NCBI RefSeq assembly: GCF_054482595.1
Contig: NZ_CM137008.1
DNA length: 64,000 nt
Strand: one strand, 5' to 3'
The position numbers and the translations under genes are program-made. Positions within the stretch are counted from its first letter, which is position 1. The number at the start of each line of letters is the position of its first letter. Of the stretch, positions 6,797 to 51,472 are shown piece by piece. The notes under the pieces were generated by a model, which did not search any database, had not been told where the DNA came from, and saw only the letters and a program-made list of their open reading frames with translations.

Positions 6797-7537
6797 GTGA
6801 AGTTCAAAGTTATCGCCCTGGCGGCATTAATGGGTATTAGCGGGATGGCAGCGCAGGCTAACGAATTGCCGGATGGACCGCATATTGTCACCTCCGGTAC
6901 GGCAAGCGTGGATGCGGTGCCAGACATTGCCACTCTTGCGATTGAAGTCAATGTGGCCGCAAAGGATGCCGCTACTGCCAAGAAACAGGCGGATGAGCGC
7001 GTCGCACAATACATTTCCTTCCTTGAACTCAATCAGATCGCGAAAAAAGATATCAGCTCAGCGAACTTACGCACCCAGCCAGATTATGATTATCAGGATG
7101 GTAAAAGTATCCTTAAAGGCTACCGCGCTGTGAGAACGGTGGAAGTCACGCTCCGTCAGTTAGACAAACTGAATTCCTTGCTGGATGGCGCGCTGAAGGC
7201 GGGTCTTAACGAAATTCGTTCTGTGTCGCTGGGCGTGGCGCAGCCGGATGCCTATAAAGACAAAGCACGTAAGGCAGCGATTGATAACGCGATTCATCAG
7301 GCGCAGGAACTGGCGAACGGCTTTCATCGTAAACTGGGGCCGGTATATAGCGTGCGCTACCATGTTTCCAACTATCAGCCCAGCCCAATGGTGCGGATGA
7401 TGAAAGCCGATGCCGCGCCGGTCTCAGCCCAGGAAACTTACGAGCAGGCCGCTATTCAGTTTGATGATCAGGTCGATGTGGTCTTCCAGTTAGAACCTGT
7501 GGATCAACAACCCGCTAAAACACCTGCAGCACAATAA
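6797..7537 (+). CDS. yggE: periplasmic SIMPL/DUF541 family protein YggE
   Basis: ORF track 246 aa with signal peptide MKFKVIALAALMGISGMAAQA; synteny. Confidence 0.87.
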   Translation: MKFKVIALAALMGISGMAAQANELPDGPHIVTSGTASVDAVPDIATLAIEVNVAAKDAATAKKQADERVAQYISFLELNQIAKKDISSANLRTQPDYDYQDGKSILKGYRAVRTVEVTLRQLDKLNSLLDGALKAGLNEIRSVSLGVAQPDAYKDKARKAAIDNAIHQAQELANGFHRKLGPVYSVRYHVSNYQPSPMVRMMKADAAPVSAQETYEQAAIQFDDQVDVVFQLEPVDQQPAKTPAAQ

Positions 7538-7704: not shown

Positions 7705-8601
7705 ATGGACATTTTTATTTCGAAAAAGATGCGCAATTTCATTTTATTAGCGCAAACCAATAATATTGCCCGGGCGGCAGAAAAAATCCATATGACGGCT
7801 TCGCCATTTGGTAAAAGCATTGCCGCGCTGGAAGAACAAATTGGCTATACGCTATTTACCCGCAAAGATAATAATATCAGCCTCAATAAAGCCGGACAGG
7901 AACTGTATCAAAAACTGTTCCCGGTTTATCAACGGCTTTCTGCGATTGATAATGAAATCCATAACTCAGGGCGTCGTTCACGAGAAATTGTGATTGGCAT
8001 AGATAATACTTATCCGACAATTATTTTCGATCAGTTGATTAGTCTCGGAGATAAGTATGAAGGCGTGACCGCCCAGCCAGTTGAGTTCAGCGAAAACGGC
8101 GTTATCGATAATCTTTTTGACCGCCAGTTAGATTTTATTATCTCCCCACAGCATGTATCTGCACGAGTTCAGGAACTGGAAAACCTGACTATCAGTGAAC
8201 TACCACCGCTGCGATTGGGCTTTCTCGTTTCTCGCCGTTATGAAGAGCGTCAAGAGCAAGAGCTGCTTCAGGAGCTGCCCTGGCTACAAATGCGCTTTCA
8301 AAACCGGGCTAACTTCGAAGCAATGATTGATGCTAATATGCGACCTTGTGGGATCAATCCAACCATTATTTATCGTCCCTACAGTTTTATGGCCAAAATC
8401 AGCGCCGTGGAGCGCGGACATTTTCTGACGGTGATCCCGCATTTTGCCTGGCGACTGGTGAATCCGGCAACGCTGAAATATTTTGATGCGCCGCACAGGC
8501 CGATGTATATGCAGGAATATCTTTATTCAATCAGAAATCATCGTTATACCGCCACGATGCTTCAGCATATTGCTGAAGATCGTGACGGGACAAACCATTA
8601 A
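7705..8601 (+). CDS. ygfI: LysR-family transcriptional regulator YgfI
   Basis: ORF track 298 aa, N-terminal HTH (NNIARAAEKIHMTASPFGKSIAALEEQIG); convergent with scpC as in E. coli. Confidence 0.85.
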   Translation: MDIFISKKMRNFILLAQTNNIARAAEKIHMTASPFGKSIAALEEQIGYTLFTRKDNNISLNKAGQELYQKLFPVYQRLSAIDNEIHNSGRRSREIVIGIDNTYPTIIFDQLISLGDKYEGVTAQPVEFSENGVIDNLFDRQLDFIISPQHVSARVQELENLTISELPPLRLGFLVSRRYEERQEQELLQELPWLQMRFQNRANFEAMIDANMRPCGINPTIIYRPYSFMAKISAVERGHFLTVIPHFAWRLVNPATLKYFDAPHRPMYMQEYLYSIRNHRYTATMLQHIAEDRDGTNH

Positions 8602-10076
8602 CCCAGCATCGAGCCGGTTGCAATTAAATTACGGTGTAAGTCGAAGACGTGGCTAAGATCGTGGTGAATATGTCCGCCAGGCGCATTTTCCAGATAGCGA
8701 TGCAGATAATCCCGATACATAGGATGTGCACAATTATCAATGATCGTGCGGGCGCGTTGAAGCGGGGAAAGACCGCGCAGATCGGCGATCCCTTGTTCGG
8801 TGATGATCACTTTGACGCTGTGTTCGCTGTGATCAACATGGCTGCACATTGGCACGACGGTTGAGATCTTGCCTTCTTTAGCAATCGATGGGGCCATAAA
8901 GATCGACAGATACGCGTTGCGTTCAAAATCACCGCTGCCGCCGATGCCGTTCATCAGATCGACCCCGGCTACGTGCGTTGAGTTGGCATGCCCGTAAATA
9001 TCAAACTCCAGGCCGACGTTCAGAGCGATGACGCCCAGACGACGGATGATTTCCGGGTTATTGGAAATCTCCTGCGGACGCAACACAATGCGGCTGGCAA
9101 AGTAATCCATATTGTCGTAAATCTTGCGCAGGGAATCGGCCGAGATTGTCAGGCTGGAGGCGCTGGCCCCGCTGATTTTGCCGGTTTCCAGTAAATGCAC
9201 CACCGATTCCTGTAGCACTTCCGAATACATCATAAACGGAGGAATTTCCGGGTTTTCCCCCAGACGCGCCATTACCGCATTATTGATATTGCCCACGCCA
9301 CTTTGCAGCGGCAGAAATTCCGGCGGAATACGCCCATGCGCCATTTCCTGCAATAAGAACGTGACCACGTTATCGGCAATCTGCTGGCACATGGGATTTT
9401 GCTTATCCAGCATATTACCGGCGTCGGGCAAGTTGGTTTCCACGACGGCGACAATCTTTTTCGGATCGATTTGCACATAGCGGGTACCGACGCGATCCAT
9501 TGCATGGAAGATCGACACGCTATTACGCCGCGGTGGCGCGCCAGGAATCACAATATCTGCCAGTTCTGCAACGCGCGGATCGTGATAGTGATTAAGTTCA
9601 ATGATCACTTTCTTCGCCCGCAGCAGCCATGTCGGCGCATTACCGATCCCGCTGGTTAACCAGACTCGACCATCCGGTGCCAGTGCCGATGCTTCAATGA
9701 CGGCAACATCAATGTCGCCGAAGAAACCGTAATTGACCATTTGCGCCACTTCGCTCAAATGCAGGTCAACGAAACTCACCGCGCCCTGATTGATCTTTTT
9801 ACGTAAACCGGACGATGTTTGATATGGCGCACGCCAGGAAACAGCATCAGCGTCAGAAAGTACATCGTCAGCGGCGGCGCTGATTGACGCACCCGTCAGC
9901 AGGCGAATTTGATACGGCTTTTTGGCCTCATGCTGTTCGTTAGCTCTGCGGGCAATCGCGGTGGGTAGGGCTTTCGGTGAACCCGCTGGGGTAAAGCCGC
10001 TAAATGCCACCATGTCGTTATGCTGGATAATTTCTGCCGCTTCATCGGCGGTCATCCTTGTCCACTGAGTTTCCAT
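8598..10076 (-). CDS. scpC: propionyl-CoA:succinate CoA transferase
   Basis: ORF track 492 aa, METQWTRMTADEAAEIIQHNDMVAFSGF; last gene of sbm operon. Confidence 0.92.
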   Translation of the reverse strand: METQWTRMTADEAAEIIQHNDMVAFSGFTPAGSPKALPTAIARRANEQHEAKKPYQIRLLTGASISAAADDVLSDADAVSWRAPYQTSSGLRKKINQGAVSFVDLHLSEVAQMVNYGFFGDIDVAVIEASALAPDGRVWLTSGIGNAPTWLLRAKKVIIELNHYHDPRVAELADIVIPGAPPRRNSVSIFHAMDRVGTRYVQIDPKKIVAVVETNLPDAGNMLDKQNPMCQQIADNVVTFLLQEMAHGRIPPEFLPLQSGVGNINNAVMARLGENPEIPPFMMYSEVLQESVVHLLETGKISGASASSLTISADSLRKIYDNMDYFASRIVLRPQEISNNPEIIRRLGVIALNVGLEFDIYGHANSTHVAGVDLMNGIGGSGDFERNAYLSIFMAPSIAKEGKISTVVPMCSHVDHSEHSVKVIITEQGIADLRGLSPLQRARTIIDNCAHPMYRDYLHRYLENAPGGHIHHDLSHVFDLHRNLIATGSMLG

Positions 10077-10099
10077 TTTTACTCCTTCGTTCGCAGGGA

Positions 10100-10885
10100 T
10101 TAATGACCAACGAAATTAGGTTTACGTTTTTCGAGGAAAGCGTTCATCCCTTCCTGGTAATCTTCGCTGTCATAAACGGCGCGGCGCATCCCCTGAATAC
10201 GTTCAAATTCATCGGAGTTCATGGTGTGTGCTTCGCCCAGTACACGCAGCTCTTCTTTGATAACGGCAATGGCTAACGGCGCTTTCTCAGAGATGTGGTG
10301 CGCCATTTGTAAGGTGAAATCTTCCAGTTCTTCCACTTCCACAACATGGTTGAGGATGCCGACAGCCAGCGCGCGCTGGGCGGTGATTGGCGAAGCGGTA
10401 AAAATCAGCTCTTTGACAATGTGGAAGCCCGCGTCGCGGGTCAGGTTGTGAATGCCGACCAGGTTATACGGGACGCCGAGGTTTACAGGTGTCATTGAGA
10501 AGGTTGAGGTACTGGCGGCGATGATCAGATCGGAACTCATGATCATTTCAAATGCGCCACCCCAAACACTACCTTCCACCATCGAAATGATCGGTTTCGG
10601 GAATTTTTGGATCATGCGGGTGATTTGACGCAACGGATCATCATAGGAGAGCGGATCGCGACCGCCAGACGGCAGTTCGTGAATATCGTGACCTGCGGAG
10701 AAGACTTTGGATCCACTCGGCGCGCGCAAAATGATACAGCGAATTTCCGGTCGGTTGAGATCGCTTAATGCCTGCATAAGATCATCAATAAAGACTTTAC
10801 TTAAGGCATTAAGTTTGCGGCCATAGTTAAACTCAATGACCGCCACTTTGTTGATAGTGACAACGTTCACATACTGATAAGACAT
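10100..10885 (-). CDS. scpB: methylmalonyl-CoA decarboxylase (crotonase fold)
   Basis: ORF 10100..10927 trimmed to internal Met MSYQYVNVVTINKVAVIEFNYG giving 261 aa. Confidence 0.88.
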   Translation of the reverse strand: MSYQYVNVVTINKVAVIEFNYGRKLNALSKVFIDDLMQALSDLNRPEIRCIILRAPSGSKVFSAGHDIHELPSGGRDPLSYDDPLRQITRMIQKFPKPIISMVEGSVWGGAFEMIMSSDLIIAASTSTFSMTPVNLGVPYNLVGIHNLTRDAGFHIVKELIFTASPITAQRALAVGILNHVVEVEELEDFTLQMAHHISEKAPLAIAVIKEELRVLGEAHTMNSDEFERIQGMRRAVYDSEDYQEGMNAFLEKRKPNFVGH

Positions 10886-10895
10886 AAAAATTCCT

Positions 10896-11891
10896 TTAAT
10901 CAAAATATTGCGTCTGGATAAATTCACTGAGCTGCCGCAGGCCGGTGCGCGGTGAGAGCGTATTGTTTTTGACCGCTAAAAGCGTCTGGCGGTAATAGCG
11001 ATCGAAATCTTCATTCGCGAACAGGTGATTCAGTACTTCTTCTTCGGTTTGTTTACGCAGCCATTCCACCGATTGTTGTTGCCGCACTTGCTGTAAACGA
11101 CCACTGGCAGTTAGCGCGGTTTTGAAGTCGATGATGGCGTGCCAGATCTCATCGATTCCACGTTTTTCCAGTGCGCTACAAGTCAGAACCCGTGGCTGCC
11201 ATTCGTCGTATTTACGTCGCAGAATATGCAGGGCACTCTCGTACATATGCCGGGCAATGGCGACATTGGTATGGTTATCGCCATCGTCTTTGTTGATAAC
11301 GATCAGATCAGCCACTTCCATCAGCCCTTTTTTAATGCCCTGCAGATCATCGCCGCCACCGGCAATTTGCAACGAGATAAAACAGTCCACCATGCGGGCG
11401 ACTTCCGTTTCCGACTGCCCGACGCCAACCGTTTCGACAATCACTACGTCATAACCCGCCGCTTCGCATAACAGCATTAATTCCCGCGCTCGCTGACTGG
11501 CACCGCCCAGATGACCGGAGGATGGTACCGGGCGAATAAACGCCGTCTCGGCACGCGCCAGGTCATTCATGCGGGTTTTATCCCCGAGAATGCTACCGCC
11601 AGTGACCGGACTGCTGGGATCGACCGCAATAACCGCAACTTTTAATCCATCACGAATCAACAACATGCCAAAGGCTTCAAGAAAGGTACTTTTCCCCGCG
11701 CCGGGTGTGCCGGTAACGCCCAGTCGCAGGGCGTTACCGCAGTACGGCATAATGGCATCAAGCAGTTGCGTACTTAGCGCCTGATGACGCGGGTGACGGC
11801 TTTCCACCAGCGTCATGGCCTGGGCGAGTGTGGCACGCTCACCCTGACGTAAGCGGCGAATACTTTCTGCCAGCGTGGCTTCATTAATCAT
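10896..11891 (-). CDS. argK: methylmalonyl-CoA mutase-associated GTPase (MeaB/ArgK family)
   Basis: ORF track 331 aa, P-loop GTPGAGKST. Confidence 0.92.
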
Positions 11892-27145: not shown

Positions 27146-27592
27146 AAATTTCTCTTCTGCTGTTTATTTGATACGCATCACACTTTCATCTCCCGGTTTT
27201 TTCGCCGGGAGATTTTCCTCATTTGAAATAAACTAATTTCACCTCCGTTTTCGCATTATATTTTCTAATGCCATGATTTTTTGATTTAGTGTTTTTTGAC
27301 ATTTTTTTAGCTCTTAATATTGTCTTATTCAAATTGACTTTCTCATCACATCATCTTTGTATAGAAACTGGTGTGTTTTTTGGTTTTTTATTCTGTCGCG
27401 ATTTTTGCATTTTTTAACCATAAGCTAATGTGATGATCAATTTTACCTTATGGTTAACAGTCTGTTTCGGTGGTAAGTTCAGGCAAAAGAGAACGATTGC
27501 GTTGGGGACCGGGAGTGGCTCCGATGCTGGGTTTTGTGGTGATAATTTCACCATGAAAAAGTTGTCAGCCCCGCTTATTCAATGAGGACAAG
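27146..27592 (+). promoter_or_regulatory. gcvTHP promoter/control region (AT-rich; site of known GcvA/Lrp/CRP/PurR control in E. coli)
   Basis: 447-bp AT-rich intergenic region upstream of gcvT; individual sites not mapped here. Confidence 0.45.
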
Positions 27593-40956: not shown

Positions 40957-42055
40957 ATGTTTGAAATTAATCCGGTAAATAATCGCATTCAGGACCTCAC
41001 GGAACGCTCCGACGTTCTTAGGGGGTATCTTTGACTACGACGCCAAGAAAGAGCGTCTGGAAGAAGTAAACGCCGAGCTGGAACAGCCGGATGTCTGGAA
41101 CGAACCCGAACGCGCACAGGCGCTGGGTAAAGAGCGTTCCTCCCTCGAAGCCGTTGTCGACACCCTCGACCAAATGAAACAGGGGCTGGAAGATGTTTCT
41201 GGTCTGCTGGAACTGGCTGTAGAAGCTGACGACGAAGAAACCTTTAACGAAGCCGTTGCTGAACTCGACGCCCTGGAAGAAAAACTGGCGCAGCTTGAGT
41301 TCCGCCGTATGTTCTCTGGCGAATATGACAGCGCCGACTGCTACCTCGATATTCAGGCGGGGTCTGGCGGTACGGAAGCACAGGACTGGGCGAGCATGCT
41401 TGAGCGTATGTATCTGCGCTGGGCAGAATCGCGTGGTTTCAAAACTGAAATCATCGAAGAGTCGGAAGGTGAAGTGGCGGGTATTAAATCCGTGACTATC
41501 AAAATCTCCGGCGATTACGCTTACGGCTGGCTGCGTACAGAAACCGGCGTTCACCGCCTGGTGCGTAAAAGCCCGTTTGACTCCGGCGGTCGTCGCCATA
41601 CGTCGTTCAGCTCCGCGTTTGTTTACCCGGAAGTCGATGACGATATTGATATCGAAATCAACCCGGCGGATCTGCGCATTGACGTTTATCGCGCGTCCGG
41701 CGCGGGCGGTCAGCACGTTAACCGTACCGAATCTGCGGTGCGTATTACTCACATCCCAACCGGGATCGTGACCCAGTGCCAGAACGACCGTTCCCAGCAC
41801 AAGAACAAAGACCAGGCCATGAAGCAGATGAAAGCGAAGCTTTATGAACTGGAGATGCAGAAGAAAAATGCCGAGAAACAGGCGATGGAAGATAACAAAT
41901 CCGACATCGGCTGGGGCAGCCAGATTCGTTCTTATGTCCTTGATGACTCCCGCATTAAAGATCTGCGCACCGGGGTAGAAACCCGCAACACGCAGGCCGT
42001 GCTGGACGGCAGCCTGGATCAATTTATCGAAGCAAGTTTGAAAGCAGGGTTATGA
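40957..42055 (+). CDS. prfB: peptide chain release factor 2, made by programmed +1 frameshift (frame 1 40957..41031, then 41033..42055)
   Basis: [25 protein letters not shown] then in-frame TGA at 41032-41034; downstream frame (ORF track 41174..42055) carries GGQ motif (SGAGGQHVN); 365 aa total. Confidence 0.9.
41017..41035 (+). promoter_or_regulatory. prfB autoregulatory +1 frameshift site (internal SD AGGGGG, then CUU UGA C)
   Basis: cttagggggtatctttgac. Confidence 0.85.
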
Positions 42056-44422: not shown

Positions 44423-45871
44423 TTATTCTCCATGCTCATTTTTCTTCAGCTTGCGCATCAGAAGCCACATACGTACTGTCCTGACTTTTAAATCTTTATC
44501 AGAGACGGATTCCTTCACCAGGTCAGCATGATGCTGGTAGCCATTAAAGAAGACATTCAGCACAACGGCGCTAAGGGTTGCGAGCATAATGCCGCTATGC
44601 AGCAACGGTTGCAGTACGGCCGGTAACTTAGAAAAGAAATCGTGAGAGAGCGTTGGAGTCATGCCAACGCCGAGACTGATCGCCACAATATAGAGGTTGT
44701 AACGGTTGGTGGTGTAGTTACAGCGCGACAGAATTCGAATCCCTGTCGCCAGTACCATGCCGAACATCACCAGACCAGCGCCGCCCAGCACAAATTGCGG
44801 AATGGAGGCTACCAGCACCGCCATTTTTGGCACCATGCCAAACAGGATTAATATAATTCCCGAAGAAATACACACCCAGCGGCTATGAACGCGCGTCACG
44901 CTAACCAGGCCAACGTTTTGAGAAAATGACGTGTGGGGGAAGCTGTTAAACGTGCCACCAATCATTGTCCCTACGCCATCGACACGCAGCCCGCGAATAA
45001 TATCGTGCGAAGAGAGTTTACGACCGACTATTTCACCCAGTGCCAGGAACATCCCCATCGACTCGATAAACACGATGATTAACACGGCAGTCATGGTCAG
45101 AATGGAAACGGGATCGAAAATCGGCATACCAAACGACATCGGGGTGACAATCGCAAACCACGAGGCATCATGTAGCCCGGATAAATTGACTTCATTCATC
45201 ATCCACGAAAGTAAAAAGCCAAATACAATCCCCAGTAATACGGCGACGTTGGACATAAATCCTTTCGCATAGCGAGTAATGAGCAAGATAAAAATTAAGA
45301 CGGCAAAGGAGATACCTAAATAAACGGGATTACCATATTGCGGATTCCCTTTACCTCCGGCGGCCCAGTCAATACCCACCTGAATGATGCTAAGCCCGAT
45401 AGAAGTAATAACCACACCGGTAACCAGTGGCGGGAATAAAGGCATCAAGCGACCGATAAGTGGCGCTAATAATGTGGTGATAAAACCCGCGGCGATAGTG
45501 GCACCAAATATCCCCAGCAGGCCGATATCCGGGTTCATCCCAATGGCTATCATTGGTGTTACAGCAGCAAACGTCACCGACATAATCACCGGCAGGCGGA
45601 TCCCCATAAAGCGGCCGATACCGATACATTGCAATAATGTGACGATCCCGCAGCAAAAGAGATCCGAGCTAATGAGCATCGCAATAGCTTCTTTTGAGAG
45701 GCCCAGTCGGTCACCAATCATAAGAGGAACAGCGACTGCACCTGCGTACATGACAAGGACGTGTTGCAGACCGAGTATGATCAGCTTTCCTGGTGATAAT
45801 ATGCGGTCAACCTCATCAGTTGGGCGGTCTTGCCCAGAAGATGAGGGAAGTTGGGAATCTATGGCGCTCAT
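44423..45871 (-). CDS. uacT: uric acid/xanthine permease (NCS2/NAT family)
   Basis: ORF 44423..46000 trimmed to MSAIDSQLPSSSGQDRPTDEVDRILSP (482 aa). Confidence 0.87.
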   Translation of the reverse strand: MSAIDSQLPSSSGQDRPTDEVDRILSPGKLIILGLQHVLVMYAGAVAVPLMIGDRLGLSKEAIAMLISSDLFCCGIVTLLQCIGIGRFMGIRLPVIMSVTFAAVTPMIAIGMNPDIGLLGIFGATIAAGFITTLLAPLIGRLMPLFPPLVTGVVITSIGLSIIQVGIDWAAGGKGNPQYGNPVYLGISFAVLIFILLITRYAKGFMSNVAVLLGIVFGFLLSWMMNEVNLSGLHDASWFAIVTPMSFGMPIFDPVSILTMTAVLIIVFIESMGMFLALGEIVGRKLSSHDIIRGLRVDGVGTMIGGTFNSFPHTSFSQNVGLVSVTRVHSRWVCISSGIILILFGMVPKMAVLVASIPQFVLGGAGLVMFGMVLATGIRILSRCNYTTNRYNLYIVAISLGVGMTPTLSHDFFSKLPAVLQPLLHSGIMLATLSAVVLNVFFNGYQHHADLVKESVSDKDLKVRTVRMWLLMRKLKKNEHGE

Positions 45872-46306
45872 CAGTGTTTCTCCTTTCGCCCGCCAGAGTA
45901 AAAAGCAACCGTTTACGTTAATGAAACTGTCTAAACACATGCTCGTGGAGTGCCAGTTTTTGCGAGGAAGGGGAGTTAGAGACAGGAATTGCGGAGGCAA
46001 TCACATAATTGTGGTTAAACCACGAAAATGAGAAGAGAACCTGACAATGGAATTATCTGTAATTTTCTCATATTGATATTTCATTAATCATTCTGGCATG
46101 TCGCACTCTCGCATTTAATCGTTTTTATCTGGATAGCGCTCTTTTGATCGGCAATGTTGAAATAATGAAAGCGGCATAGTTTGAGGGGCAATAATTTGAA
46201 CTCAGTCGCAAAATTATAATTAAAACGGTCATGCTACCTAATATATGCCCGTTTATTGCATCGCGAAATTTGAGAAGACATAACTCATTAAATGAAAGGG
46301 ATGCAA

Positions 46307-48226
46307 ATGAATAAGTTTATCGCTGCTGAAGCTGCGGAATGTATAGGCTGTCATGCTTGTGAAATTGCCTGTGCGGTGGCACACAATCAAGAAAACTGGC
46401 CGCTGAGTCACAGTGACTTTCGACCGCGTATCCACGTTGTAGGGAAAGGCCTGGCTGCGAATCCGGTGGCCTGCCATCACTGCAACAATGCCCCTTGCGT
46501 TACGGCTTGTCCGGTTAATGCTCTGACTTTCCAGTCCGATAGCGTACAACTGGACGAGCAAAAATGTATTGGTTGTAAAAGATGCGCAATCGCTTGCCCC
46601 TTTGGCGTCGTTGAGATGGTCGATACGATTGCGCTGAAATGCGACCTTTGTAACCAGCGCAGTTCCGGCACGCAAGCCTGTATTGAAGTCTGCCCAACAC
46701 AGGCGTTACGGCTGATGGACGATAAAGGGTTACAGCAGATAAAGGTGGCCCGCCAGCGCAAAACGGCAGCAGGAAAAGCGTCATCAGACGCTCAGCCATC
46801 TCGCAGTGCAGCGTTGCTCCCCGTTAACTCGCGTAAAGGCGCAGATAAAATTTCAGCGAGTGAACGGAAAACCCACTTTGGCGAAATCTATTGCGGGCTG
46901 GATCCACAACAAGCGACTTATGAGAGTGACCGCTGTGTTTATTGTGCCGAAAAAGCTAACTGCAACTGGCATTGCCCGCTGCATAACGCTATTCCGGATT
47001 ACATCCGTCTGGTACAGGAAGGAAAGATTATTGAAGCGGCAGAACTTTGCCACCAGACCAGTTCCTTACCAGAAATCTGCGGCAGGGTATGCCCACAGGA
47101 CCGTCTTTGTGAAGGCGCATGTACTTTGAAAGATCACTCTGGCGCAGTCTCTATCGGTAATCTGGAACGCTACATCACCGATACCGCGCTGGCGATGGGC
47201 TGGCGTCCCGATGTCAGCAAAGTTGTTCCCCGTATCGAGAAAGTGGCGGTGATTGGCGCTGGGCCTGCAGGGTTAGGGTGTGCTGATATTCTGGCGCGCG
47301 CAGGAGTTCAGGTCGATGTCTTTGATCGCCATCCAGAAATTGGCGGTATGCTGACTTTTGGCATTCCTCCTTTCAAACTCGATAAAACGGTATTAAGCCA
47401 GCGGCGAGAGATATTCACCGCAATGGGAATCGACTTTCATCTTAACTGTGAAATTGGCCGCGATATTACCTTTAGCGATTTAACTTCTGAATATGATGCA
47501 GTTTTCATCGGCGTGGGGACTTACGGGATGATGCGAGCTGATCTGCCGCATGAAGATGCGCCCGGTGTCATTCAGGCTCTACCGTTCTTGACTGCCCATA
47601 CCCGCCAGCTCATGGGGTTGCCGGAGTCTGAAGAGTATCCGCTGACGGACGTGGAAGGTAAGCGAGTCGTGGTATTGGGCGGTGGCGATACGACAATGGA
47701 TTGTTTGCGGACTTCCATCCGCCTCAATGCCGCCAGCGTGACCTGCGCGTATCGTCGTGATGAAGTCAGTATGCCGGGCTCGCGCAAAGAGGTGGTCAAT
47801 GCGCGCGAGGAAGGTGTCGAGTTTCAATTCAATGTTCAGCCGCAATATATCGCTTGTGACGAAGATGGGCGTTTAACTGCGGTGGGCCTGATTCGTACCG
47901 CCATGGGTGAGCCGGGGCCGGATGGTCGCCGTCGTCCTCGTCCGGTTGCGGGTTCAGAGTTTGAATTGCCCGCCGATGTTCTCATTATGGCCTTTGGTTT
48001 CCAGGCGCATGCCATGCCGTGGTTGCAGGGCAGCGGAATTAAACTCGATAAATGGGGCCTGATTCAAACCGGCGACGTTGGGTATTTACCTACCCAGACG
48101 CATCTGAAAAAAGTATTTGCTGGTGGGGATGCAGTTCATGGCGCGGATCTGGTTGTCACTGCCATGGCCGCAGGAAGGCAGGCGGCGCGCGATATGTTAA
48201 CTCTGTTTGATACGAAGGCATCGTGA
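46307..48226 (+). CDS. ygfT: fused Fe-S (4Fe-4S ferredoxin-type) / FAD-NAD(P) oxidoreductase YgfT
   Basis: ORF 46292..48226 trimmed to [22 protein letters not shown] (639 aa); multiple CxxCxxCxxxCP motifs then GltD-like dinucleotide domain ([10 protein letters not shown]). Confidence 0.87.
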
Positions 48227-48714
48227 TGAAATCGTTAATTATCGTTAATCCGGCTGACTGTATTGGCTGCCGTACTTGTGAAGTGGCCTGTGTGGTCGCT
48301 CACCCTTCAGAACAAGAGTTGAATGCCGATGTCTTTTTACCCCGGCTGAAGGTACAGCGACTGGACTGCATCAGTGCGCCGGTGATGTGCCATCAGTGTG
48401 AAAACGCCCCTTGTGTTGGCGCTTGCCCCGTGGGGGCGCTGACGATGGGCGAGCAGGTGGTGCAGACCAATTCTGCCCGTTGTATTGGCTGTCAGAGTTG
48501 CGTCAGTGCGTGCCCGTTTGGAATGATCACCATTCAGTCGTTGCCGGGGGATACCCGGCAACAAATCGTGAAATGCGATCTCTGTGAACAGCGGGAAGAG
48601 GGGCCTGCCTGCGTTGAATCTTGCCCAACACAGGCGCTGCAGTTGCTTACTGAAAGAGAACTCAGGCGAGTCCGCCAGCAGCGTATTGTTGCCAGCGGTG
48701 AGAATCCTCTGTGA
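48223..48714 (+). CDS. ygfS: 4Fe-4S ferredoxin-type protein YgfS
   Basis: ORF track 163 aa (true start may be second Met); [11 protein letters not shown] and [12 protein letters not shown] motifs; ATGA overlap with ygfT. Confidence 0.85.
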
Positions 48715-48749
48715 AAGAAATCTCCGCGCTGAAAGGCGCGGAGAATCTA

Positions 48750-50117
48750 TTAGATTGCCCAACCACCCGCGTAAAATGCGACCAGTGCGGCAGTAATGAT
48801 CACCGTACCAATATTCAGCTTTTGCCATTCGCGTGCAAAGACGCGGCCTACGACCAGTGTCACAAAGCCCAGCATAATACCGGTAACGATATTACAAGTC
48901 AGAACGATGAACACGGCACACACCAGGCCAGCCATAGCGTCAATAAAATCATTGAAATCCAGCTTCGAGACGTTACTTAACATCAGCAAACCTACGTACA
49001 TCAGAGCGGGTGCAGTGGCGTAACCAGGGATCAAAAATGACAGCGGTGATAAGAACAGAATCAGCAGGAATAACGCCCCCACTACGGTTGCGGTTAACCC
49101 TGTTTTACCCCCGGCGGCGGTTCCTGCCGCTGATTCGATATAAACCGCTGCGGGCGCTGCGCCCACCAGGCCGGAGAATATTGAACTTACTGAGTCACTG
49201 GTCAGGGCTTTGCCGCCGTTGATGATCTGGTTGTCTTTATCCAACAAATTCGCCTGACCGGCGACGGCACGGATGGTGCCAGTAGCGTCGAACACTGCGG
49301 TCATCACCAATGCCAGTACACTCGGAAGTACAGTTGGCTGGAGTGCGCCCATAATATCGAGGCTGAAAATCAGAGACTTACCATCTTCGCCAGTCAGGCT
49401 TGGCATCGCCACCAGACCGTGGTATTTCACCGCTGGGTCAAAGATTAAGCCGATGATCGAAATTGCAATAATCACCAACAAGATCCCGCCGGGTACGCGA
49501 CACTTCTCCAGACCGAAGATGACCGCCAGCCCCAGCAAGCTCATCATCACCGGGAAGGAGGTAAACGCACCGAGCGCCACTGGCAAGCCTTCAATCGGGT
49601 TTTTGATAACCATTCCCACACCGTTAGCAGCAATCAGCAGCAGAAACAGCCCGATACCGATACCTGTACCGTGAGCGATCCCCATCGGTAAATTACGTAA
49701 GATCCAGGTACGCACACCGGTTACGGAAATGGCGGTGAAGATGACGCCCATCAGAAATACCGCGCCCAGTGCGACAGGAACGCTAATTTGTTGCCCGAGT
49801 ACCAGACTGAATGCGGTAAACGCCGTCAAGGAAATCGCGCAACCAATCGCCATTGGCAAATTGGCCCATAATCCCATCAGCAACGAGCCGAAGCCCGCGA
49901 CCAGACAGGTGGCAACAAACACAGCTGCGGGAGGAAAACCTGCTTTGCCCAGCATTCCCGGAACGACGATAACGGAATAAACCATGGCCAGAAAGGTCGT
50001 TAAGCCAGCCAGTACTTCCTGACGAACGGTACTGCCACGAGCGGTAATTTTAAAATAATTATCCAGCGCGCCCTGTGGCTTTGGTGCGTCCGGTGTTTGT
50101 AGGATGTCTCCAGACAT
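48750..50117 (-). CDS. ghxQ: guanine/hypoxanthine permease (NCS2 AzgA-like)
   Basis: ORF track 455 aa, [34 protein letters not shown]. Confidence 0.87.
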
Positions 50118-50152
50118 AATGATGTCCTCACGAGGATGTAAAAGTTTTATTA

Positions 50153-51472
50153 TTAGTTGCGTTCGTACACCAGACGACCATCAACGTAGGTGCGGTAGAT
50201 CGAACGGTCATCGCCCAACGTCATCATCACGAACAATTTGTCGACTAAAGAAACAGAGTTGTCATAGCGCAGCTGCTGTAGCGGAGTGGCGGTGGGTTCC
50301 ATCACCACGAAATCAGCCTCTTTGCCAGGTAAAAAGTTGCCAATCAAATCGTCAAGGCCCAGAGATTTCGCTCCGCCGAGCGTTGCCAGGTAAAACGCTT
50401 CATATGCCGAGAGGCGATAGCCTTGTAATTGCAACACTTTGTAGGCTTCGTTCAGCGTTTGCAGCATGTTGAAAGTGGTTCCGGCACCGATATCCGTTCC
50501 CATGCCCACTTTGACTTTCTTCTGCCATGCTTTTTTCAAGTTGAATAAGCCGCTGCCGAGGTAAAGGTTGGAGGTCGGACAGAAAGCAATGCTGGATTTG
50601 GTTTCGCTGAGACGATCCCACTCTTTTTCTTCGAGATGGACGCAGTGAGCAAAGACACAGTTTTTACCGGTCAGGCCGTACTGATGGTAAACATCCAGAT
50701 AACCATCATGGTCAGGATAAAGCGATTTCACCCAGGCAATTTCATCTTTGTTTTCACAGAGATGGGTATGTACCCACGTATCCGGATATTCCTCTTTCAG
50801 GCGTTGCGCCATCGCCATCTGTTCAGGAGAAGAAGTAGGGGCGAAGCGTGGCGTAATCGCATATAGCAGACGACCATTTTTGTGCCAGCGTTCAATCAGT
50901 TCTTTGCTTTGGTGATAGCTGCTTTCGGCAGTGTCGAGCAGATAATCCGGTGCGTTACGGTCCATCATCACCTTACCGGCAATCATACGCATATTGATAT
51001 GACTGGCGGCTTCAAACAGCGCATCAACGGATTGCGGATGAACAGTGCCAAACACCAGCGCCGTGGTGGTTCCGTTACGTAAAAGCTGCTTGATGAAGAA
51101 CGCCGACATTTCGCGGGCGTACTCTAAATCCTCATAACGACGTTCAGTAGGGAAGGTGTGTTTATTCAACCACTCCAGCAATTGCTCACCATAGGCCCCC
51201 ACCATTTCACTTTGCGGATAATGGATATGTGTATCGACAAAGCCCGGTACTATCAGTTTGCCGCGATAGTCGCGCACGCGAATGGTGTCAGGAATTTGAT
51301 GCTTTCCGTTTTCCCATTCGCCAAACCATTCCACTTTTCCCTGTTTAATGAGTAATAAACCATCCTCAATAAACCGCAGCGCAGAGGCAATCTCTTCCGG
51401 GTTATCGACCGTACGGGTGACATCAATAAAACTGCCTCGTACCGCTTTTAACGTGTGTTCTCCTGACATCAT
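50153..51472 (-). CDS. guaD: guanine deaminase
   Basis: ORF 50153..51592 trimmed to [15 protein letters not shown] (439 aa); amidohydrolase motif [12 protein letters not shown]. Confidence 0.9.

Follow-up and report, generated by a model that had tools for sequence, protein, structure and literature searches.

The ygfT-ygfS pair beside uacT in Escherichia coli: a probable electron-transfer module of anaerobic uric-acid degradation with candidate sigma-54 control

The window analyzed in the present study, a stretch of 64,000 nucleotides, came from an E. coli chromosome. Many E. coli chromosomes matched the segment at 45500-50500 with 100% identity, and 80% or more of it was present in 5178 of 5426 complete genomes. 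The ygfT-ygfS gene pair has already been described, and its link to urate is known from the literature and from RefSeq product names; the linkage to fdhF and the control-region elements reported below are the additions of this analysis. The genes and boundary features of the locus were as follows.

44423-45871, minus strand: uacT (ygfU), encoding a urate/H+ symporter, the divergent neighbour of ygfT (mapped RefSeq annotation).
45872-46306: spacer of 435 bp between uacT and ygfT (RefSeq gene boundaries).
46307-48226, plus strand: ygfT (uacF), full coding sequence of 639 aa (RefSeq; NF009451 equivalog, 1499.7 bits).
48226-48714, plus strand: ygfS, 162 aa, encoding a four-cluster HycB/HydN-like ferredoxin and coupled translationally to ygfT (RefSeq, Pfam).
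48721-48744, no strand assigned: GC-rich, terminator-like hairpin between the convergent ygfS and ghxQ, with a T-tract on the ghxQ side only.
48750-50117, minus strand: ghxQ (mapped RefSeq annotation).

The RefSeq genes matched exactly the original prediction, which had placed the pair at 46307-48714 and described it as divergent from uacT across a 435-bp spacer. The ygfT start at 46307 was backed by an AAGGGA Shine-Dalgarno sequence and by an alignment with HycB that ran from residue 1 to residue 1. The hairpin downstream of ygfS had a 9-bp stem and was called as a terminator on the minus strand (RNA fold of -21.8 kcal/mol, z = -4.3). Translational coupling through an ATGA overlap had also been proposed, and the coupling held up but the type of overlap did not. 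The E. coli junction reads GTGATGA, in which the ygfT stop codon TGA (48224-48226) and the annotated ygfS ATG (48226-48228) share 1 nt (TGATG), with a GAAGG Shine-Dalgarno sequence 8 nt upstream, inside ygfT; a 4-nt overlap would arise in E. coli only if the alternative GTG at 48223 were used. A true ATGA overlap was found in most orthologues (in 7 of 12 junctions, and in Citrobacter MGH106 as well once its frame was taken into account), and all 12 junctions examined showed either a 1-nt or a 4-nt stop/start overlap. The overlap is thus kept among orthologues, indicating that translational coupling holds and is conserved. The ygfS gene was present in 12 of the 14 full loci; it was missing from those of Citrobacter sp. 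R56 and Arsenophonus and is therefore dispensable in some lineages.

The architecture of YgfT was resolved into two parts.

46307-46756, plus strand: HycB/HydN-like ferredoxin domain with four Cys4 motifs (4 x [4Fe-4S]), ygfT codons 1-150 (Pfam Fer4 families, HycB match).
46868-48175, plus strand: GltD-like module, consisting of Fer4_20 with 2 x [4Fe-4S] and the FAD and NAD(P)H Rossmann folds, ygfT codons 188-623 (PF14691, PF07992).

According to Pfam, YgfT contained Fer4 dicluster domains at about 1-150, Fer4_20 at 188-298 (PF14691, E=7e-37), and Pyr_redox_2 at 312-623, in agreement with the predicted fusion of a multi-cluster ferredoxin to a GltD-like FAD/NAD(P) domain, and YgfS was Fer4 throughout. 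YgfT scored 1499.7 bits over residues 1-639 against the NCBIfam equivalog NF009451 (cut-off 1154), and its N-terminal ferredoxin domain was 44% identical to YgfS. Conservation was scored over 14 orthologues of YgfT (57-93% identity) and 9 orthologues of YgfS. All 24 cluster-binding Cys residues of YgfT were invariant, comprising the sixteen of the ferredoxin domain (C12...C129), arranged in four CxxCxxCxxxC(P)-type motifs, and the two Cys4 motifs of the GltD-like module (C210/213/219/223 and C258/262/268/272), which align to GltD. The sixteen Cys residues of YgfS (C12...C133), in four motifs of the same type, were likewise invariant in its 9 orthologues. The motifs G317-A-G-P-A-G322 (FAD), G458-G-G-D-T462, and Y482-R-R484 (NAD(P)H) were invariant or nearly so in the 14 YgfT orthologues (A321 and G460 at least 90%). 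These results indicated that YgfT carries the motifs of a GltD-like Fe-S flavoprotein, both for its clusters and for the predicted FAD and NAD(P)H sites. No FMN/DHODH-like, molybdopterin, or amidohydrolase domain was found in YgfT among its Pfam, NCBIfam, and PDB sequence matches. The literature yielded no purified-protein biochemistry for YgfT or YgfS.

The gene neighbourhood was then compared among other Enterobacterales. A scan of genome contigs with a single protein reached close relatives only (12 loci), and the wider context came from exact-protein look-ups. In the loci examined, ygfT-ygfS lay within a urate island, beside XDH-type genes, ygfK-ssnA, ygeWXY, and a sigma-54 activator. A Xan_ur_permease gene was the divergent partner of ygfT in Citrobacter, Klebsiella, Salmonella diarizonae, and Arsenophonus, and in Arsenophonus the uacT<>ygfT pair stood alone, with no other urate-pathway gene within 10 kb. 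The fdhF gene adjoined or shared an operon with ygfT-ygfS in 6 loci: Erwinia oleae, Pantoea sp., and Erwinia sp. had a ygfT-ygfS-fdhF operon, in which fdhF overlapped ygfS by 8 nt in two of the three, and K. aerogenes, K. michiganensis, and S. diarizonae had the order fdhF-uacT<>ygfT-ygfS. FdhF matched TIGR01591 at 891.8 bits (cut-off 666) and PDB 1aa6 over its full length, which confirmed its identity, and an in-frame TGA was present in the K. aerogenes gene. In E. coli itself, fdhF was unlinked to ygfT-ygfS. The linkage in other Enterobacterales supports an electron wire from FdhF through YgfS to YgfT.

We further analyzed the uacT/ygfT spacer using an alignment of 5 Escherichia/Citrobacter sequences (A1). 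Three elements stood out.

45940-45956, minus strand: candidate sigma-54 (-24/-12) promoter for uacT, CTGGCACTCCACGAGCA, the best sigma-54 PWM match in the spacer and a weak one.
46066-46078, no strand assigned: candidate enhancer (UAS), the inverted repeat TCTCATATTGATA of the form TATCA-N3-TGAGA, a proposed YgeV site common to both divergent promoters.
46244-46260, plus strand: probable sigma-54 site and promoter of ygfT, TATGCCCGTTTATTGCA, based on a ChIP-seq site and on conservation; invariant in A1.

The ygfT element corresponds to the ChIP-seq sigma-54 site OS32, 36 nt upstream of ygfT (FAT 3, a weak peak; PSSM 4.5; PMC4591121, Table 1). In TATGCCCGTTTATTGCA, the -12 element is the consensus TTGCA and the -24 element has TGC instead of GGC; the site scored 6.8 bits with the PWM (rank about 110 of 128k) and was 1 nt off the potF site in the same ChIP table. 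In 8 of 9 genera, a site with the conserved -12 TTGCA preceded the ygfT ATG by 33-46 nt. The uacT candidate CTGGCACTCCACGAGCA scored 6.9-7.0 (rank about 104 of 128k window positions), its TGGCA...GAGCA was conserved in A1, and strong sigma-54 sites occupied the equivalent position and orientation in Klebsiella (12.5) and Salmonella (17.3). The E. coli sites, at about 7 bits, were not above chance by PWM alone, as about 0.75 such matches are expected per 435 bp. The PWM does not single out the E. coli sites; thus the case for them rests on ChIP-seq and positional conservation.

For the candidate enhancer, the 12-mer CTCATATTGATA also occurred exactly upstream of the ygeW and xdhA sigma-54 sites, giving three exact copies, and about 0.009 copies would be expected by chance in the 76 kb searched (uniform-base estimate). 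Upstream of ygfK, a perfect palindrome, TATCATTATGATA, of the TATCA-N3-TGA(G/T)A type was found. The repeat was invariant in A1, and each of the 9 genera examined had a match, with at most 1 mismatch, located 170-340 bp ahead of ygfT. Because the same type of repeat precedes ygfT, ygfK, ygeW, and xdhA, we regard it as a candidate YgeV site; the literature yielded no binding consensus for YgeV/IsrR. Previous studies have reported that ygfT expression is reduced in a ygeV mutant and that ygfT and uacT belong to the YgeV iModulon. The two -24/-12-like elements and the enhancer repeat were the most conserved blocks of the spacer. Collectively, these elements give the spacer the appearance of a pair of divergent sigma-54 promoters that share an inverted-repeat enhancer lying between them. 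The two promoters would face away from an enhancer that is probably bound by YgeV in response to urate, and the ygfT-ygfS operon and the divergent uacT would be switched on together.

Previous work, as summarized by other authors, has reported that ygfT (uacF) and its paralogue aegA are needed for formate- and FdhF-dependent anaerobic urate degradation. For the reductive pathway published in 2025, in-vitro assays and mutants attributed the two reductions to XdhD-YgfM and YgfK; both work in vitro with NADH and without YgfT, and each bears its own FAD/NAD(P)H module. The original prediction had proposed an anaerobic role in urate or purine reduction. The role was supported by the published formate-dependent uric-acid degradation genes, by urate induction, and by the YgeV iModulon shared with uacT. 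As to the reducing activity, the pathway link stood, and the idea that YgfT is itself the reductase is very unlikely, since YgfT has no substrate-reducing domain. The remark that the enzymology was not settled was fair, as YgfT/UacF was still termed an uncharacterized oxidoreductase in 2025. It has also been reported that glucose represses urate degradation in the wild type. A bacterial two-hybrid study gave no convincing AegA-FdhF interaction, and deletion of aegA left the dye-linked activity of FDH-H unchanged.

Based on these results, we propose, with a probability of roughly 60%, that ygfT-ygfS is a soluble electron-transfer module of the reductive anaerobic uric-acid pathway, which is fed by FdhF, delivers to NAD(P)+, and is co-induced with uacT via sigma-54 and YgeV. 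YgfT more likely feeds electrons into the pathway than acts as the purine reductase, because it lacks a substrate-reducing domain and because XdhD-YgfM and YgfK are active in vitro without it. In the proposed route, formate would be oxidized by FdhF, and the electrons would pass to YgfS and then to the ferredoxin domain of YgfT through a putative FdhF-YgfS-YgfT contact. They would presumably flow onward to the two [4Fe-4S] clusters and the FAD of the GltD-like module, where NAD(P)+ would be the most likely acceptor; the conserved YRR motif suggests NADP+. The reduced nucleotide would then drive XdhD-YgfM (urate to 2,8-dioxopurine) and YgfK (ring reduction). The main alternative output would be a direct Fe-S hand-off to XdhD-YgfM or YgfK, but the FAD/NAD(P)H modules and the NADH activity of these enzymes favour nucleotide reduction. 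Since both enzymes are active in vitro with NADH alone, the module is not strictly required for catalysis. A more specific form of the proposal is that FdhF, YgfS, and YgfT constitute a dedicated soluble formate:NAD(P)+ oxidoreductase that powers the reductive urate pathway and is co-induced with uacT from divergent sigma-54 promoters sharing one YgeV enhancer (TATCA-N3-TGA(G/T)A). We hold this form only tentatively, with the odds somewhat against it. If true, it would give FDH-H a second physiological home beyond formate hydrogenlyase, and we know of no other formate-to-NADPH route in E. coli.

The direct hand-off was weighed as a mechanism in its own right. Electrons from FdhF would run via the YgfS and YgfT clusters and enter the Fe-S chain of XdhD (or YgfK) directly, with no pyridine nucleotide in between; low-potential electrons would make urate reduction favourable, and the FAD/NAD(P)H site of YgfT would be an auxiliary entry or an Nfn-like bifurcation/confurcation site. 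Such wiring is consistent with ygfT-ygfS being divergent from or adjoining XDH-family genes in Erwinia, Pantoea, Mixta, Serratia, Buttiauxella, and Klebsiella. It also agrees with textbook redox potentials, by which NADH is a marginal donor for urate reduction and formate is a good one. Solved complexes wire GltD-like modules to other partners (NfnI; long chains deposited as NfnA, molybdopterin oxidoreductase, and formate dehydrogenase-O major subunit), and the roles put forward in the literature include bifurcation or a transfer 'directly to uric acid'. However, XdhD-YgfM and YgfK have their own FAD/NAD(P)H input domains and are active in vitro with NADH, the invariance of the NAD(P)H site in YgfT argues that this site is used, and no NfnA-type small-subunit gene was found in the neighbourhood. 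On balance, we consider direct wiring rather unlikely.

The proposed control of the pair by sigma-54 and YgeV also had to be set against an alternative arrangement, in which the spacer would be an ordinary sigma-70 divergent promoter region under FNR and CRP. Two further boxes in the spacer may be relevant to its regulation.

45903-45918, no strand assigned: PurR-like palindrome AAGCAACCGTTTACGT of putative function, flanked by the uacT start codon (ATG) and the candidate promoter of this gene.
45990-46011, no strand assigned: conserved block AAATGCGGAGGCAATCACATAATTG, CRP-like (TGCGGAGGCAATCACA) and/or IHF-like, based on motif match and on conservation in all 5 A1 sequences.

The original prediction had suggested testing this spacer for FNR/CRP dependence. 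The CRP-like box at 45990-46005 was indeed present and conserved, with 2 mismatches to the CRP core and an overlapping IHF-like match with 1 mismatch, neither of which alone was enriched over chance. The glucose repression of urate degradation fits this box, and the paralogue aegA is reported to be responsive to anaerobiosis and nitrate. However, the spacer contained no FNR site (TTGAT-N4-ATCAA) at up to 2 mismatches, and no sigma-70-like -35/-10 pair was found in it, the single match of the region falling inside ygfT. The sigma-54 ChIP-seq site (PMC4591121), the ygeV dependence and iModulon membership, and the best-conserved blocks all argue against this arrangement, and an ordinary sigma-70 region is improbable. 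There were no NarL heptamers or ModE-like motif in the spacer, no other IHF match in it, and none between the enhancer and the ygfT promoter. The PurR-like box had 3 mismatches to ACGCAAACGTTTGCGT and was the best match in the 64-kb window; chance would give 0.10 sites per 435 bp when up to 4 mismatches are allowed. Its core AAGCAACCGTTTAC was invariant across the 5 A1 sequences, and the next base varied in Citrobacter MGH106. In the literature, no link between PurR and ygfU/uacT was found beyond one incidental co-mention.

That YgfT, together with YgfS, would itself catalyse the reduction of urate or purines is very improbable: the conserved uacT<>ygfT core (alone within 10 kb in Arsenophonus), the label 'formate-dependent uric acid oxidoreductase' in one review, and the strong induction of ygfT by urate could be read in this way, but YgfT contains electron-transfer modules only, the homologous module in GltS, DPD, and YgfK only feeds a separate catalytic domain, and both reductive steps are already given to XdhD-YgfM and YgfK.

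Host urate levels are affected when gut Enterobacteria break down urate anaerobically, and this capacity is being built into probiotics against gout. The published reductive pathway covers the carbon and nitrogen chemistry and leaves the need for formate and FdhF, and the roles of YgfT/YgfS and AegA, unexplained. If FdhF-YgfS-YgfT is the electron-input module, engineered strains could gain flux when given this module and a source of formate. For understanding or de-repressing the island, the predicted divergent sigma-54 promoters and YgeV enhancer offer concrete mutation targets.

Among known systems, residues 176-631 of YgfT aligned end to end with GltD, the small subunit of GltS (6s6s_G; also 2vdc_G), with E=3.7e-108. 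The two proteins share both [4Fe-4S] Cys motifs, the FAD motif GAGPAG, and the NADPH motifs GGGDT and YRR; YgfT differs in its extra N-terminal four-cluster ferredoxin domain. No gltB-like large subunit was found within 45 kb of ygfT or at any orthologous locus examined, and a glutamate synthase identity, despite older annotations, was rejected for want of this subunit nearby. The same GltD-like fold was matched in the large subunit of NfnB/NfnI (5jca_L) and in a Thermotoga chain deposited as dihydropyrimidine dehydrogenase subunit A (4ylf_B), with E of about 1e-85 each. Ferredoxin:NADP oxidoreductases of the NfnB/NfnI and SudA types exchange electrons between NADP(H) and low-potential Fe-S carriers, and we propose this reaction for YgfT. 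The ferredoxin of YgfT is, however, built in or co-encoded, and nothing here indicates bifurcation. Membership of the Nfn family was rejected, the partner small-subunit (NfnA-type) gene being missing from the ygfT neighbourhood. YgfK and dihydropyrimidine dehydrogenase have the Fer4_20 and Pyr_redox_2 GltD-like module in common with YgfT, and YgfK belongs to the same pathway and island; these enzymes add an FMN catalytic domain for heterocycle reduction, whereas YgfT has no such domain.

The ferredoxin parts resembled HycB of formate hydrogenlyase (7z0s_B), with E=1e-30 for the YgfT domain and E=2.7e-31 for YgfS. The nanowire subunits HycB3/HycB4 of the hydrogen-dependent CO2 reductase (HDCR) matched as well, and the HycB family as a whole gave E from 1e-27 to 1e-31. 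Within formate hydrogenlyase, HycB provides the docking site for FdhF, and HycB and HycB3 take electrons from FdhF in solved complexes. In contrast to these systems, no hydrogenase genes adjoin ygfT-ygfS, and a flavoprotein module takes the place of the hydrogenase as output. HydN proper (NF007658) was rejected as an identity: YgfS scored 134.7 bits and the YgfT N-terminus 119.1 bits against a cut-off of 260, so both are paralogues. The E. coli paralogue AegA (NF009408) consists of the same two modules, a HycB-like four-cluster ferredoxin followed by a GltD-like module, and YgfT scored 948 bits on its model, below the AegA cut-off and above its own equivalog cut-off. The two differ in that ygfT lies beside uacT in the purine island and is coupled to a ferredoxin gene; aegA of E. 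coli K-12 we take to lie elsewhere on the chromosome, without a ygfS-like partner. Strong induction by urate has been reported for ygfT and not for aegA. In Serratia and Buttiauxella, the island copy is of the AegA type and has a ygfS-like partner.

The ygfT-ygfS locus has been experimentally implicated in anaerobic urate metabolism. Urate consumption by anaerobic E. coli was reported to require formate, aegA, ygfT and ygeV, and urate strongly induces ygfT. A flavoenzyme review also gives AegA, the E. coli paralogue of YgfT, a part in a reductive breakdown of urate that depends on formate and FDH-H. These reports bear out the anaerobic urate activity proposed in the original prediction, which thus restates published knowledge; the reading is sound, and the locus is named, annotated and experimentally implicated. 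Its remark that the enzymology is not settled was fair, as a 2025 pathway paper still labels AegA and UacF (YgfT) 'uncharacterized oxidoreductases'. The RefSeq annotation mapped onto the window, with which the six-frame ORF list was consistent at the ygfT locus, gave the following arrangement:

44423-45871, minus strand, uacT
45872-46306, uacT/ygfT spacer, 435 bp
46307-48226, plus strand, ygfT, 'formate-dependent uric acid utilization protein YgfT'
48226-48714, plus strand, ygfS
48721-48744, GC-rich hairpin closing the ygfT-ygfS operon against the convergent ghxQ
48750-50117, minus strand, ghxQ, then guaD, xanQ, xdhD, ygfM, ssnA and ygfK

The annotated strands confirmed the divergence from uacT, and the predicted 435-bp spacer matched exactly. 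Translational coupling of ygfT and ygfS also held, but the ATGA overlap proposed for it, the sole inaccuracy in the description of the locus, did not apply to E. coli. The junction there reads GTGATGA: the ygfT stop TGA (48224-48226) and the annotated ygfS ATG (48226-48228) share one base (TGATG), with a GAAGG Shine-Dalgarno sequence 8 nt 5' of the ygfS start. A literal ATGA overlap was observed at 7 of the 12 junctions compared, and Citrobacter sp. MGH106 provided an eighth by frame, its ygfT being one codon longer with the stop inside ATGA. Since all 12 junctions overlapped by 1 or 4 nt, the coupling is real and conserved. The surrounding 5-kb stretch matched many E. coli chromosomes at 100% identity and was covered to at least 80% in 5178 of 5426 complete genomes. 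In one Escherichia genome (L008, 10001-10876), only residues 1-292 of YgfT were matched and the contig ran on past the match; in another, ygfT was divided between two contigs. These cases (L008 and L007/L014; Escherichia sp. MOD1-EC7003 and E. coli SCPM-O-B-8794) may be disruptions or assembly breaks. Elsewhere in the window, prfB is annotated at 40957-42055 (plus strand) with a programmed +1 frameshift, and the ORF list gave only its downstream 293-aa frame.

Table 1 of a sigma-54 ChIP-seq study (PMC4591121) lists a weak site 36 nt 5' of ygfT. We scored the spacer with a PWM built from 41 sites of that table and aligned five Escherichia and Citrobacter spacers, which had a mean identity of 82%. 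Both sigma-54-like elements and three further blocks were invariant:

45903-45918, PurR-like box, core invariant, one base differing in Citrobacter MGH106
45940-45956, minus strand, candidate uacT-facing sigma-54 site CTGGCACTCCACGAGCA, PWM 6.9
45990-46011, CRP/IHF-like block, invariant
46067-46078, conserved 12-mer CTCATATTGATA, invariant
46244-46260, plus strand, ygfT sigma-54 site TATGCCCGTTTATTGCA, ChIP-seq OS32 (PMC4591121), PWM 6.8

Neither sigma-54 site exceeded chance by PWM score alone; their conservation supports both as putative promoters. The two best spacer matches kept the same pattern in 8 of 9 genera, and Mixta had no plus-strand site. The minus-strand site facing the divergent gene scored 11.8-18 outside Escherichia and Citrobacter, and the plus-strand site, with a -12 TTGCA and a degenerate -24, preceded the ygfT ATG by 33-46 nt. 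Expression of ygfT was reported to be lower in a ygeV mutant, and the YgeV iModulon includes ygfT and uacT. Neither a sigma-70-like promoter nor an FNR-like site was found in the 435-bp spacer; the CRP-like box, together with the reported glucose repression of urate degradation, leaves room for CRP input. In the same Table 1, the potF site OS08 (TATGCACGTTTATTGCA) differs from OS32 by a single base, and both lack the canonical -24 GG. The window's top sigma-54 PWM score (15.7; CTGTCGCGATTTTTGCA, 27393-27409, plus strand) fell about 185 bp 5' of gcvT, which starts at about 27593 and has a PurR-like box (AAGAGAACGATTGCGT, 27487-27502) about 100 bp upstream. This match was not among the intergenic entries covered from the ChIP-seq table (PMC4591121) and may be a PWM artefact.

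Motif discovery upstream of the island's four sigma-54 sites recovered the exact 12-mer 5' of ygfT, ygeW and xdhA, and a perfect palindrome 5' of ygfK. The summed match was 34/36 versus at most 30 in shuffled controls, and a uniform-base estimate gave about 0.009 expected exact copies of the 12-mer in the 76 kb searched. The inverted repeat T(A/C)TCA-N3-TGA(G/T)A was located between both promoters in all nine genera. Such a form would be expected of an enhancer serving YgeV, the island's sigma-54 activator, and the repeat is a candidate for that role; our literature search found no published YgeV site. The related elements were as follows:

61251-61267, minus strand, ygfK sigma-54 site
61436-61448, ygfK-upstream palindrome TATCATTATGATA, proposed YgeV enhancer type, about 170 bp 5' of the ygfK sigma-54 site
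61477-61492, second PurR-like box ACGCAATCGTTTAACT, 4 mismatches, about 30 bp past the palindrome
1539-1551, 1637-1649, 7357-7368 and 7378-7390 of L002 (E. coli ygeV-ygeW/xdhA region), enhancer-type repeats

PurR-like boxes are therefore present in two sigma-54 control regions of the island. The ygeW and xdhA copies of the 12-mer each have a weaker companion repeat at a distance of 10-90 bp (TATCATCATGATC close to the ygeV start, TATCACATTGATT close to xdhA), an indication that the activator sites come in pairs and that ygeV may be autoregulated.

YgfT-type proteins (60-93% identity) are spread across Enterobacterales, and we compared gene order at 14 loci outside E. coli. The E. coli arrangement was retained in Escherichia species and Citrobacter sp. 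MGH106. In Klebsiella aerogenes, K. michiganensis and Salmonella enterica subsp. diarizonae, the order was fdhF-uacT<>ygfT-ygfS (<>, divergent), with ssnA-ygfK immediately after it. In this type, the gene adjacent to uacT has 715 codons and an in-frame TGA at the selenocysteine position, and it matched E. coli FDH-H over its full length (1529 bits). This selenocysteine-type fdhF (CCARV*HGPS; L015 5708-7855 in K. aerogenes, also L016 and L023) had no Pfam entry in the collection used, presumably due to the internal stop. In Erwinia oleae, Pantoea sp. BAV 3049 and Erwinia sp. BNK-24-b, a ygfT-ygfS-fdhF operon was divergent from a fused XDH operon. Its fdhF, a Cys variant, exceeded the Fdh-alpha equivalog cut-off (891.8 vs 666) and matched 1aa6 at 1045 bits; two of these three genomes show an 8-nt overlap between it and ygfS. 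The loci of Mixta, Serratia fonticola and Buttiauxella read XDH<>ygfT-ygfS and lacked fdhF. ygfS was missing at 2 of the 14 loci: Citrobacter sp. R56 had uacT<>ygfT without it, and Arsenophonus retained only uacT<>ygfT. No description of the ygfT-ygfS/fdhF synteny was found in the literature searched. In Buttiauxella (L013) and Serratia fonticola (L020), the island gene beside the ygfS-like ferredoxin passed the AegA cut-off and not that of YgfT. The AegA/YgfT naming split thus does not follow genomic context. This AegA-type island copy also suggests that aegA of E. coli arose from an island gene as a paralogue now dispersed.

The domain analysis assigned YgfT a Fer4-type dicluster region (about 1-150), Fer4_20 (188-298) and Pyr_redox_2 (312-623), and YgfS Fer4 throughout. 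YgfT exceeded the NCBIfam YgfT equivalog cut-off (1499.7 vs 1154 bits) and fell slightly under that of AegA (948 vs 1003). Among 14 YgfT/AegA-type orthologues (57-93% identity), all 16 + 8 cluster cysteines, the FAD and NAD(P)H motifs and Y482-R483-R484 were invariant or nearly so, and the 16 cysteines of YgfS were invariant in 9 of 9 orthologues. Together, the two proteins are predicted to form a chain of ten [4Fe-4S] clusters with a FAD/NAD(P)H site at its end.

We consider it reasonably probable (about 0.6) that YgfT-YgfS is an FdhF-fed electron-input module, in which formate electrons would pass from FdhF through YgfS to YgfT. Repeated adjacency to fdhF, and translational coupling with it, are the strongest sequence-level support found for this path; a published two-hybrid test of AegA against FdhF gave no clear signal. 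In the simplest model, the module would regenerate reduced pyridine nucleotide from formate. XdhD-YgfM, which converts urate to 2,8-dioxopurine, and YgfK, which reduces the ring, each contain an FAD/NAD(P)H input domain and worked with NADH in vitro (2025), and YgfT has an invariant NAD(P)H site. The product would be NADPH, as suggested by the YRR motif. The chief rival to this model is direct Fe-S transfer from YgfS/YgfT to XdhD or YgfK. In keeping with it, XDH genes frequently adjoin ygfT-ygfS, and formate is thermodynamically a better electron donor than NADH for urate reduction; nevertheless, given an FdhF-fed module, nucleotide reduction is more likely than a direct wire. YgfT is unlikely to be the urate-reducing enzyme itself, as the domain content of YgfT and YgfS includes no purine-binding or purine-reducing domain. 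The electron-module model leaves one locus unexplained, unless its partner genes are encoded at another site: insect-associated Arsenophonus (L017, Logan SRR27931713 contig, 7967-11950) has the divergent uacT<>ygfT pair alone, with neither ygfS nor other urate-pathway genes found within 10 kb, and still carries enhancer-like repeats together with sigma-54-like sites. Both the electron route and the regulation are directly testable from the fdhF synteny and the map of promoters and enhancer.

Solved-structure alignments agreed with Pfam on the predicted fusion of an N-terminal multi-cluster ferredoxin to a GltD-like FAD/NAD(P) domain. The alignment of YgfT 176-631 with the small subunit of glutamate synthase (6s6s_G, E=3.7e-108) ran from end to end and matched both Cys4 motifs, GAGPAG, GGGDT and YRR. 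The same region aligned at about 1e-85 with the NfnI subunit 5jca_L and with Thermotoga 4ylf_B, deposited as dihydropyrimidine dehydrogenase subunit A. YgfS, YgfT, AegA, HydN, YsaA, HycB and HyfA have been described as one paralogous ferredoxin group, and the YgfT N-terminus is 44% identical to YgfS. Residues 1-107 of YgfT matched the formate hydrogenlyase protein HycB (7z0s_B, 1e-30) as well as HycB3/HycB4 from the hydrogen-dependent CO2 reductase, and YgfS matched the same ferredoxin structures.
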